Shown here in pieces: positions 30,000 through 31,177 of a stretch of 64,000 nt of DNA. Source of the DNA: Escherichia phage A6-6; the sequence record PQ510734.1, one strand, 5' to 3'. The notes beneath the pieces were generated by a model. That model was not told the origin of the DNA and did no database searches. It saw nothing but the letters and a program-made list of their open reading frames with translations. Both the position numbers and the translations under genes were made by a program. The first letter of the stretch is position 1, and each line of letters begins with the position of its first letter.

Positions 30000-30104
30000 A
30001 TGAAAGTTTTGTTTGTTGTGTATGTAATGATTCAATATAATTACCCAATGTTTACTTATAATCTGGTGAACAACATTATTGATATGATTCAGAGGAGTAT
30101 GTAA
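30000..30104 (+). CDS. Small hydrophobic leader-like ORF
   Basis: 34-aa ORF MKVLFVVYVMIQYNYPMF... with strong RBS AAGGAGAAG; stop overlaps the next gene start (TAATG). Confidence 0.3.
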   Translation: MKVLFVVYVMIQYNYPMFTYNLVNNIIDMIQRSM

Positions 30105-30649
30105 TGACGGTAGCGGCGAAACGATTAGTATTAGAAGTTAGTTCACTTTTTGGTGAATTAGCTATAGAAAAAGTAAATAATATGTATCGTTTGACACAAG
30201 AAGACGATATGCTGTATTTTACGCCTAGTGAAATCATTCATTTAACCAAAATTGAAAATCCTTATACTGATAAAATTGTAAGCATTAATGATGAGCATAA
30301 AATTCATTTTTATTCTTCATGCCCAGGATTTAATATTGAAAGCGAGTCAATATGCTTATCAGTTATCCATTGGGATAGTTTTATAGATAAGATTAAATAT
30401 TTTTATTATTCTAATGAAAGAAAACATAGTTTAAAATGGTTTAAAAATTGCAATGCTATTATTACTAACGCTTGCAATCAGAATGATGAAACTGTTTTAA
30501 ACGTATCAAAATGTTATGAAGATGGAGATGTCTTAACTATTCGTCAAATTGATGATTTTCGAGCACATATTGTCACATTTACCAAAGACGAAGCTATTGC
30601 ACTAAAGACTTATCTTGATTCTGTTATTCCAACTATGATTTCAAAGTGA
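30104..30649 (+). CDS. Hypothetical protein, paralog of the following gene
   Basis: 181-aa ORF; C-terminus DEAIALKTYLDSVIPTMISK resembles the next ORF's C-terminus. Confidence 0.5.
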   Translation: MTVAAKRLVLEVSSLFGELAIEKVNNMYRLTQEDDMLYFTPSEIIHLTKIENPYTDKIVSINDEHKIHFYSSCPGFNIESESICLSVIHWDSFIDKIKYFYYSNERKHSLKWFKNCNAIITNACNQNDETVLNVSKCYEDGDVLTIRQIDDFRAHIVTFTKDEAIALKTYLDSVIPTMISK

Positions 30650-30655
30650 GGAAAT

Positions 30656-31177
30656 ATGTTTATTTCAAGTGGAAGTGGTTTAATTCGTGTTGAATTTAAA
30701 AATGACATCTTTCTTATTCAAGGAGATGATATTATTAAAATGAGTTATGACGAAATCAAGAAAATTTGTCATGCTCTTGAAAGTCATGGAAAAGTGAACG
30801 CTGTTATTGATATTGGCGATTTATGGGTGACACTTTATGAAGTATCCGAAGGATTTAACATTGAAGATGAAAATAACATTTTAGCTATTGATAAAAGAAG
30901 TGATTTGTTTGATGTATTAAAAGTTTATGAACAGTCAAATGGCGGAAGAAAAGCTGCATTGATTTATCAAAAACCGCATTCATGTGGAACTGCTTCAATC
31001 ATTTCAAATATTGAAGATGAAGTTGATACTTATATGTGTGTTTTAAAAGCTGGTGGTGACCGTCATCCGGATTTTATTTCTATTCGTCAAAACAATGGAG
31101 AAATTTCATTATCAAAATCAGAAGCTGAAGCTATGATTAAGTATTTAACAACTGTTACGCCTTCAATGAAAGGATAA
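30656..31177 (+). CDS. Hypothetical protein, paralog of the preceding gene
   Basis: 173-aa ORF; C-terminus SEAEAMIKYLTTVTPSMKG. Confidence 0.5.
   Translation: MFISSGSGLIRVEFKNDIFLIQGDDIIKMSYDEIKKICHALESHGKVNAVIDIGDLWVTLYEVSEGFNIEDENNILAIDKRSDLFDVLKVYEQSNGGRKAALIYQKPHSCGTASIISNIEDEVDTYMCVLKAGGDRHPDFISIRQNNGEISLSKSEAEAMIKYLTTVTPSMKG

Follow-up and report, generated by a model that had tools for sequence, protein, structure and literature searches.

A short open reading frame (ORF) of 34 codons that is immediately followed by two related genes raises the question of whether it serves to control the genes behind it or is a gene in its own right. The case considered here lies at positions 30000–31177 of a 64,000-nucleotide stretch of Escherichia phage A6-6 (sequence record PQ510734.1), the whole of which is referred to below as the window. 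An original prediction had read this ORF as leader-like and had suggested that translational coupling or attenuation-like control acts on an uncharacterised duplicated gene. The analyses reported here indicate, from the pattern of sequence change in its homologs, that the small ORF, which corresponds to mobD.2 of phage T4, is a translated and selected protein gene and not a leader peptide. The best joint explanation of the observations, which we regard as quite probable, is that the locus is the mobD.2–mobD.1 segment of the early "hyperplastic" region of T4-type phages, in which a microprotein gene stands in a transcription unit driven by a promoter-early stem-loop (PeSL) element. The features at the centre of the locus are as follows.

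Positions 29988–29993, plus strand: AAGGAG, the Shine-Dalgarno (SD) sequence of mobD.2, read from the sequence, 6 nucleotides (nt) 5' of the ATG.
Positions 30000–30104, plus strand: mobD.2, a gene for a microprotein of 34 amino acids (aa), MKVLFVVYVMIQYNYPMFTYNLVNNIIDMIQRSM, with its ATG at 30000 and its TAA at 30102–30104.
Positions 30104–30649, plus strand: mobD.1, a 181-aa member of the Y05I family (PF24449 and PF24448; PHROG 1502), equivalent to T4 NP_049711 (P39240, Y05I_BPT4).
Positions 30656–31177, plus strand: a second Y05I-family gene (173 aa), a tandem paralog of mobD.1 that starts after 6 nt.

The small ORF with its strong ribosome-binding site, its TAATG overlap with the 181-aa gene and the 173-aa gene that comes next were all borne out, coordinates included. 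Its length is of little help in deciding its nature, as 88 ORFs of at least 25 aa are present in 7 kb and by length alone the small ORF is within chance; mobD.2 is regarded as a real gene because of its SD and its pattern of conservation. The homologs of mobD.2 possess an equivalent SD or else a stop/start overlap with the upstream gene. The predicted peptide is identical to T4 MobD.2 (NP_049712, P39239) at 32 of its 34 residues (94%), and it matches PHROG 3515 over its full length (residues 1–34 on profile positions 2–35, E 2.8e-22). In T4 itself, mobD.2 (57828–57932) overlaps mobD.1 (57283–57828) by the same 1 nt. Homologs were found by tblastn in 843 phage records; many of these matches fall where no feature is annotated, and the gene is unannotated in many genomes, for example in the RefSeq records of Ozark, CC31, and KPV15.

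The surroundings of the small ORF agree with this identification. When the segment 29500–31700 was compared by megablast, 506 phage records were matched at 90–99.6% identity, almost all of them from Tequatrovirus, and 427 of these span the 2.2-kb query within the same range of identity; the closest match was Escherichia phage vB_EcoM_Ozark (99.6%). On the plus strand the genes follow one another as in the T4 early region (viz. tk, rI.1, rI, rI.-1, mobD.5, mobD.4, mobD.3, mobD.2a, mobD.2, and mobD.1, followed by two more genes, nrdC.11, and nrdC.10), and by these sequence comparisons the window is part of the early region of a Tequatrovirus, i.e., a T4-like phage. The minus-strand ORFs of the region are all of 53 aa or less and carry no annotation in any relative examined. 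The genes of the locus are already known, as they have been part of the T4 annotation for decades, belong to Pfam and PHROG families and are present in hundreds of sequenced phages. Hence, the description of the duplicated gene as uncharacterised is appropriate as regards function, but not otherwise, since both genes have T4 names and established families.

To characterize the evolution of the small ORF, its homologs and their flanking DNA were compared from six lineages: Tequatrovirus, Mosigvirus (contig L004), Karamvirus CC31 (L005), Jiaodavirus KPV15 (L006), the Serratia phage Winklervirus CHI14 (L019), and Salmonella phage CGG4-1 (L013), the last of which was treated as a lineage without a confirmed genus. 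The encoded peptides are of 32–36 aa and share an invariant core, QYxxP(M/L)FTYN(L/M)V, whose codons vary freely at synonymous sites between lineages. Comparisons between genera give a pS (synonymous proportion of differences) of 0.5–1.0, which is saturated, as against a non-synonymous proportion (pN) of 0.2–0.3, and within Karamvirus up to 5 synonymous differences are seen with no non-synonymous ones. The variable alignment columns are distributed over codon positions 1, 2, and 3 as 20, 5, and 28. In view of the saturated synonymous change and the constrained amino acids, mobD.2 is conserved as a protein, and purifying selection at the protein level acts on it across five or more T-even phage genera. 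Between the conserved core and the stop codon there is a variable number of residues (10–15), and the C-terminal third of the peptide is its least conserved part.

A single-sequence AlphaFold2 model presents MobD.2 as one long helix with a predicted local distance difference test score (pLDDT) of 93, models of such short peptides being unreliable. A membrane location was also considered and was not adopted, as a rough hand estimate of the mean Kyte-Doolittle hydropathy of residues 3–23 (about 1.2) is below the usual transmembrane threshold.

The gene that comes after the small ORF is not the same in all of these phages, and the arrangements are summarized below.

Window and T4: mobD.1.
Mosigvirus: a DUF7438 ORF, then the mobD.1 homolog.
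Tequatrovirus contig L007: a DUF7438 ORF, a 92-aa ORF, then mobD.1.
CC31, KPV15, and CHI14: a DksA-like zinc-finger gene.
CGG4-1: a 98-aa ORF, behind a 21-nt spacer and with its own SD.

A DUF7438 ORF is the next gene in many Tequatrovirus, and in CC31 and KPV15 the small ORF is part of an operon and is flanked by coding sequence on either side. The change of neighbors is also seen at the nucleotide level. Of 491 Tequatrovirus records, only 69 cover at least 80% of a 64-nt query that spans the mobD.2–mobD.1 junction of the window; the others lose homology at query position 34 or 37, which is 1–4 nt past the mobD.2 stop codon. In about half of the Tequatrovirus records the homology reaches no further than TAAT (the TAATTGTG type, as in L008 and L010), and in records of this type the start codon of mobD.1 is a GTG located 2 nt past the stop or a more distant ATG. 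Because the homology breaks right past its stop codon, mobD.2 constitutes a separate module that is more conserved than its neighbors, and these alignments indicate that it is not an appendage of mobD.1.

Small genes of the DUF7438 family (PF24219), paralogous to one another and each of about 60 aa, are scattered in this region, with at least four copies in the window (27393–27578, 29379–29579, 29582–29776, and 29766–29939). In other phages an extra copy is present right after mobD.2 (L007, 1605–1790; L004, 2608–2787), and these copies are likely substrates for gene gain and loss in the region. The T4 gene mobD.2a (58049–58165) has only 38 aa as compared to 57 aa for the window ORF at 29766–29939, which matches DUF7438 over its full length, and in this comparison the T4 copy looks truncated.

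The transcription of mobD.2 and of the genes behind it can be predicted from the following elements, which flank the genes listed above.

Positions 29943–29971, plus strand: early promoter of sigma-70 type, with −35 TTTACA (29943–29948), a 17-nt spacer and an extended −10 element, TGgTATAGT (TATAGT at 29966–29971).
Positions 29949–29984, plus strand: inverted repeat with a 15-bp stem (29949–29963 and 29970–29984) and a 6-nt loop, enclosing the −10 element.
Positions 31180–31641, plus strand: gene for a predicted membrane protein of 153 aa, the third large cistron (PHROG 944, "membrane protein," E 4e-50).
Positions 31638–32651, plus strand: gene for an nrdC.11-type nucleotidyltransferase, the last cistron, equivalent to T4 nrdC.11 (Pfam RlaP, E 3e-11; PHROG 388, E 7e-138).
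Positions 32653–32672, plus strand: hairpin resembling an intrinsic terminator, with an 8-bp stem that has 6 GC pairs, followed by the T run TTTTTTTATTT.

The promoter is the best site in a consensus scan of 4.7 kb (10 of 12 matches plus the TG), and it agrees with the consensus reported for the PeSL promoters of T4/PST, TTTACW-N17-TAYWAT (PMC4122927). The RNA of the inverted repeat has a predicted fold of −21.6 kcal/mol (z −5.1), and none of 200 shuffled sequences was as stable. The arms of the repeat are perfect in T4; the same stem-loop geometry with other arm sequences is present in Mosigvirus, CGG4-1, and CHI14, and CC31 and KPV15, with their intra-operonic small ORF, have no such stem-loop. 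No T run follows the stem-loop, and its placement relative to the promoter is as described for PeSLs (PMC2839356). By these sequence features, the promoter and stem-loop upstream of mobD.2 are a predicted PeSL cassette.

The predicted transcription start is at about 29978, i.e., 7 nt past the −10 box and 22 nt 5' of the mobD.2 ATG. Two T4 promoters, the early promoter Pe57954 and Pe57.9, have been named in earlier work, and for Pe57954 downstream expression was at least twofold higher in the absence of DksA (PMC6024815). Position 29978 would correspond to T4 coordinate 57954, which is the number in the name Pe57954. Downstream, the 153-aa gene starts 2 nt past the stop codon of the 173-aa gene and ends in a 4-nt overlap with the start of the next gene; the hairpin at 32653–32672 is the first terminator-like site that a consensus scan of the plus strand encountered after 29135, and the transcription unit probably ends there. 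Host RNA polymerase would, in this scheme, initiate at about 29978 at the PeSL-type early promoter and would produce a tightly packed transcript of five cistrons (mobD.2, mobD.1, the 173-aa paralog, the 153-aa membrane protein, and NrdC.11) that extends to 32653–32672. We infer the start site and the extent of the unit, and likewise the reinitiation of translation considered below.

A second PeSL-type element is located at 32972–33010, upstream of nrdC.10 (ATG at 33028). Its promoter-like site reads TATACA-17-TGtTATAGT, and a 12-bp hairpin (32981–33010; −17.7 kcal/mol, z −5.2) holds the −10 box in its loop.

The junction between mobD.2 and mobD.1 is of particular importance for the proposed coupling. 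In the sequence TAATG (30102–30106), the stop codon of mobD.2 shares one base (30104) with the ATG of mobD.1 (30104–30106), and the SD of mobD.1, GAGGAG at 30092–30097, lies in the last codons of mobD.2 (AGG AGT, Arg-Ser). The codons that bear the SD are likewise AGG AGT in Karamvirus, and they are GAG AGT in Jiaodavirus. As the last codons of mobD.2 hold this SD, termination–reinitiation is physically possible, and ribosomes that end translation of mobD.2 could reinitiate at the next gene via the built-in SD and the overlapping start codon. No masking structure is predicted at the start of mobD.1, the region 30060–30140 being less structured than its shuffled counterparts (z +1.72), which argues against obligatory coupling, and since the strong SD is exposed, initiation at mobD.1 probably also takes place independently. 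In a stretch of 8 kb from Ozark, 8 of 20 adjacent gene junctions overlap (by 1, 4, 11, or 29 nt), and thus a stop/start overlap is the local norm. Coupling between mobD.2 and mobD.1 is possible and, going by the junction sequence, plausible but generic, and in the favored explanation the arrangement is the usual packing of T4 genes and no dedicated control device. The suggestion of coupling therefore holds for the geometry of the overlap and the SD inside mobD.2, but not for a specific link to mobD.1, as unrelated genes come next in other phages.

A stricter form of this idea is that mobD.2 is a cis-acting upstream ORF, whose translation is obligatory for the next gene and whose product has no function. 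The stop/start overlap is in keeping with it, as are the retention of the SD of the next gene in the last mobD.2 codons across Tequatrovirus, Karamvirus, and Jiaodavirus, the retention of the overlap with three unrelated downstream genes and the position of mobD.2 as the first cistron past the promoter in four lineages. However, an ORF that acts as a spacer needs no conservation of amino acids over the whole core under saturated synonymous change, and an unstructured downstream start with a strong and well-spaced SD leaves nothing for an upstream ribosome to open. The frequency of overlaps at other junctions of the region, the 21-nt spacer and separate SD in front of the next gene of CGG4-1, and the displaced mobD.1 starts in about half of the Tequatrovirus records also speak against this possibility, which we consider unlikely.

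Attenuation is excluded by the anatomy of the locus. A consensus scan of the plus strand from 29136 to 32652 detected no terminator-like site, and because the two ORFs overlap there are no alternative hairpins between them. Between the predicted start and 30125 the RNA shows no excess of structure over shuffled sequences (z +0.55), the mobD.2–mobD.1 locus has no match in Rfam, and the MobD.2 peptide contains no run of codons for a single amino acid. The general layout, in which a promoter is immediately followed by a short ORF and then by larger genes, is all that favors a leader peptide of a transcription attenuator controlling the paralog pair; the same ORF also stands ahead of unrelated genes elsewhere, and CC31 and KPV15 have it within an operon. 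Such a leader is extremely improbable, and the leader-like or attenuation-like control that had been suggested is not supported, given the absence of a terminator, the unstructured start of mobD.1 and the conservation of the peptide as a protein.

The conservation of the peptide also bears on the possibility that MobD.2 is an arrest peptide, which acts in the ribosome and sets the rate of downstream translation, with promoter, stem-loop and mini-cistron forming a portable module. Its conserved amino acids, including an invariant proline in an aromatic-rich core, the exact coincidence of the Tequatrovirus homology break with the mobD.2 stop and the usual physical linkage of mobD.2 to the next start codon are consistent with such a role. 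Known arrest peptides keep the spacing from core to stop fixed, whereas in MobD.2 this distance varies and the C-terminal third is the part least conserved; additionally, a small protein acting in trans explains the conservation more simply. An arrest peptide is accordingly a very unlikely explanation in our assessment. A broader variant, in which MobD.2 (32–36 aa) together with the promoter and stem-loop serves as a portable "launch pad," so that the peptide (acting on the ribosome in cis, or on some host target in trans) and the built-in SD drive any accessory gene recombined behind them, is doubtful and has a low probability; if true, it would explain why the homology among Tequatrovirus breaks exactly at the mobD.2 stop codon. 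The reading of mobD.2 as a microprotein gene at the head of a PeSL-driven unit is retained in what follows.

The two large genes that follow mobD.2 had been described as paralogs with a similar motif at their C-terminal ends, and their relationship proved to be closer than this description implied. In a BLASTP comparison, residues 12–178 of the 181-aa protein align with residues 3–171 of the 173-aa protein (29% identity, E 2e-10), so that the similarity extends over the full length and well beyond the last residues. Both proteins contain the same two Pfam domains in the same N-to-C order, and both domains exceed the gathering cut-offs (24.9 for PF24449 and 27 for PF24448). The scores for T4_y05I_N (PF24449) and T4_y05I_C (PF24448) are 130.1 bits (E 5e-38) and 74.5 bits (E 9e-21), respectively, for the 181-aa protein, and 118.5 bits (E 2e-34) and 81.2 bits (E 7e-23) for the 173-aa protein. 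In the favored explanation, mobD.1 and the 173-aa gene are an old tandem duplication of the two-domain Y05I family. The 173-aa paralog is present at 90% identity or more in about 433 Tequatrovirus records (tblastn), and T4 lacks it, having mobD, the gene of a free-standing HNH homing endonuclease, between mobD.1 and nrdC.11.

An AlphaFold2 model of MobD.1 (28 homologs; mean pLDDT 82) consists of beta-rich domains that are each capped by a helix. A Foldseek search with this model against PDB gave no convincing analog, the best template modeling (TM) score overall being 0.33, and against BFVD it matched only its own family; Ctf4, the tandem PH domains of Pob3/SSRP1 and the sliding (beta) clamps were considered as homologs and rejected (TM of 0.2 or less). 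The Pfam label "putative transcription factor" for Y05I received no support from these fold searches of PDB and BFVD. When 1.84 billion representative proteins were searched exhaustively with the Y05I profile, 26 proteins were returned. From these matches and the fold searches it follows that the Y05I family is small and phage-restricted, being confined to T-even phages of enterobacteria, and that its transcription-factor label is unconfirmed. One of the 26, a beta-helix protein of 1572 aa (P0058; Pfam Beta_helix, NosD) with 13 weak repeats matching the C-terminal part of the profile, was dropped, as the Pfam model did not confirm these repeats.

The C-terminal domain of Y05I also occurs by itself, for example in an 81-aa ORF of CGG4-1 (L013, 2011–2256). 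This ORF ends in ...LPTMKGNE and is located directly 5' of a homolog of the 153-aa membrane protein of the window; similar stand-alone proteins of 70–80 aa are present in Yersinia and Serratia phages. The database protein P0021 is a chimera of the N-terminal ~120 residues of MobD.1 and the C-terminal ~55 residues of the 173-aa paralog, which suggests a deletion through recombination between tandem copies, and diverged mobD.1 alleles (48% identity) share near-identical C-terminal 40 residues; these observations together indicate that the Y05I genes recombine. In phage vB_Eco_NR1 (L001) the annotation splits the 173-aa paralog into two ORFs (4157–4516 and 4536–4679), and the gene appears to be disrupted. 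Lastly, several RefSeq records apply the name [quoted passage not shown] to genes of this region (NC_000866 to mobD.4; NC_054927 and others to mobD.1). This looks like a collision with the "mob" (mobile endonuclease) locus names of T4, because Pfam shows no molybdopterin-type domain.

Published time-resolved data on the T4 transcriptome and proteome provide information on the expression of these genes. The RNA of mobD.2 (P39239) is classed as early, and for mobD.1 (P39240) both the RNA and the protein are early, the protein intensities having been measured by mass spectrometry (PMC9697503 supplement). Mutant T4 populations undergoing genome reduction have been seen to lose the segment from nrdC.11 to mobD.3 (PMC9825161). 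T4 can thus dispense with the region, and the Y05I proteins are early, dispensable accessory proteins.

Some observations weigh against the interpretation favored here. The T4 proteome table assigns no protein class to MobD.2 (PMC9697503 supplement), and a hydrophobic peptide of 34 aa would be hard to detect in proteomics anyway; a literature search on ribosome profiling of T4 small proteins yielded nothing relevant. The stop/start overlap is retained in 7 of the 8 arrangement classes examined, whichever gene comes next, and this retention could give coupling more weight than we have allowed it. Additionally, the extent of the transcription unit is based upon consensus scans alone. As a discovery the locus is of small weight, being real but ordinary; it provides a clean example of the swapping of accessory genes in T-even phages behind a fixed promoter and first cistron, and the practical gain is the recognition of mobD.2 as a real, selected microprotein gene that many annotations omit.

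The features of this locus can be compared with those of several known systems. With leaders of the trpL type and with SecM and TnaC it has in common that larger genes directly follow a short ORF. However, unlike the trpL type, the small ORF has no terminator or antiterminator behind it and MobD.2 is conserved as a whole and not at regulatory codons, and unlike the arrest peptides SecM and TnaC its spacing from core to stop varies. The coupled cistrons of T-even phages and bacterial operons (ATGA or TAATG) share with the window both the overlap and an SD inside the upstream coding sequence, but in contrast to coupling by a masked start, the start of mobD.1 has no predicted masking structure. 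The similarity is greatest with T4, where mobD.2 and mobD.1 show the same order, the same 1-nt overlap and the same upstream promoter and inverted repeat, and where MobD.1 has the same pair of Pfam domains as the 181-aa protein of the window. The two differ in that mobD.1 is followed in T4 by the mobD HNH endonuclease gene and in the window by the 173-aa paralog and the gene for the 153-aa membrane protein, an arrangement that is shared with Ozark, AR1, and RB68. The PeSL cassettes (Arbiol et al., 2010; Comeau et al., 2014), the papers on which do not name mobD in their main text, have an early promoter with a stem-loop over the −10 box, followed by an SD and the start of a small ORF, in a hyperplastic region beside variable genes, all of which is also the case here; in the window, however, homology breaks most sharply where the small ORF ends, and not inside the PeSL.

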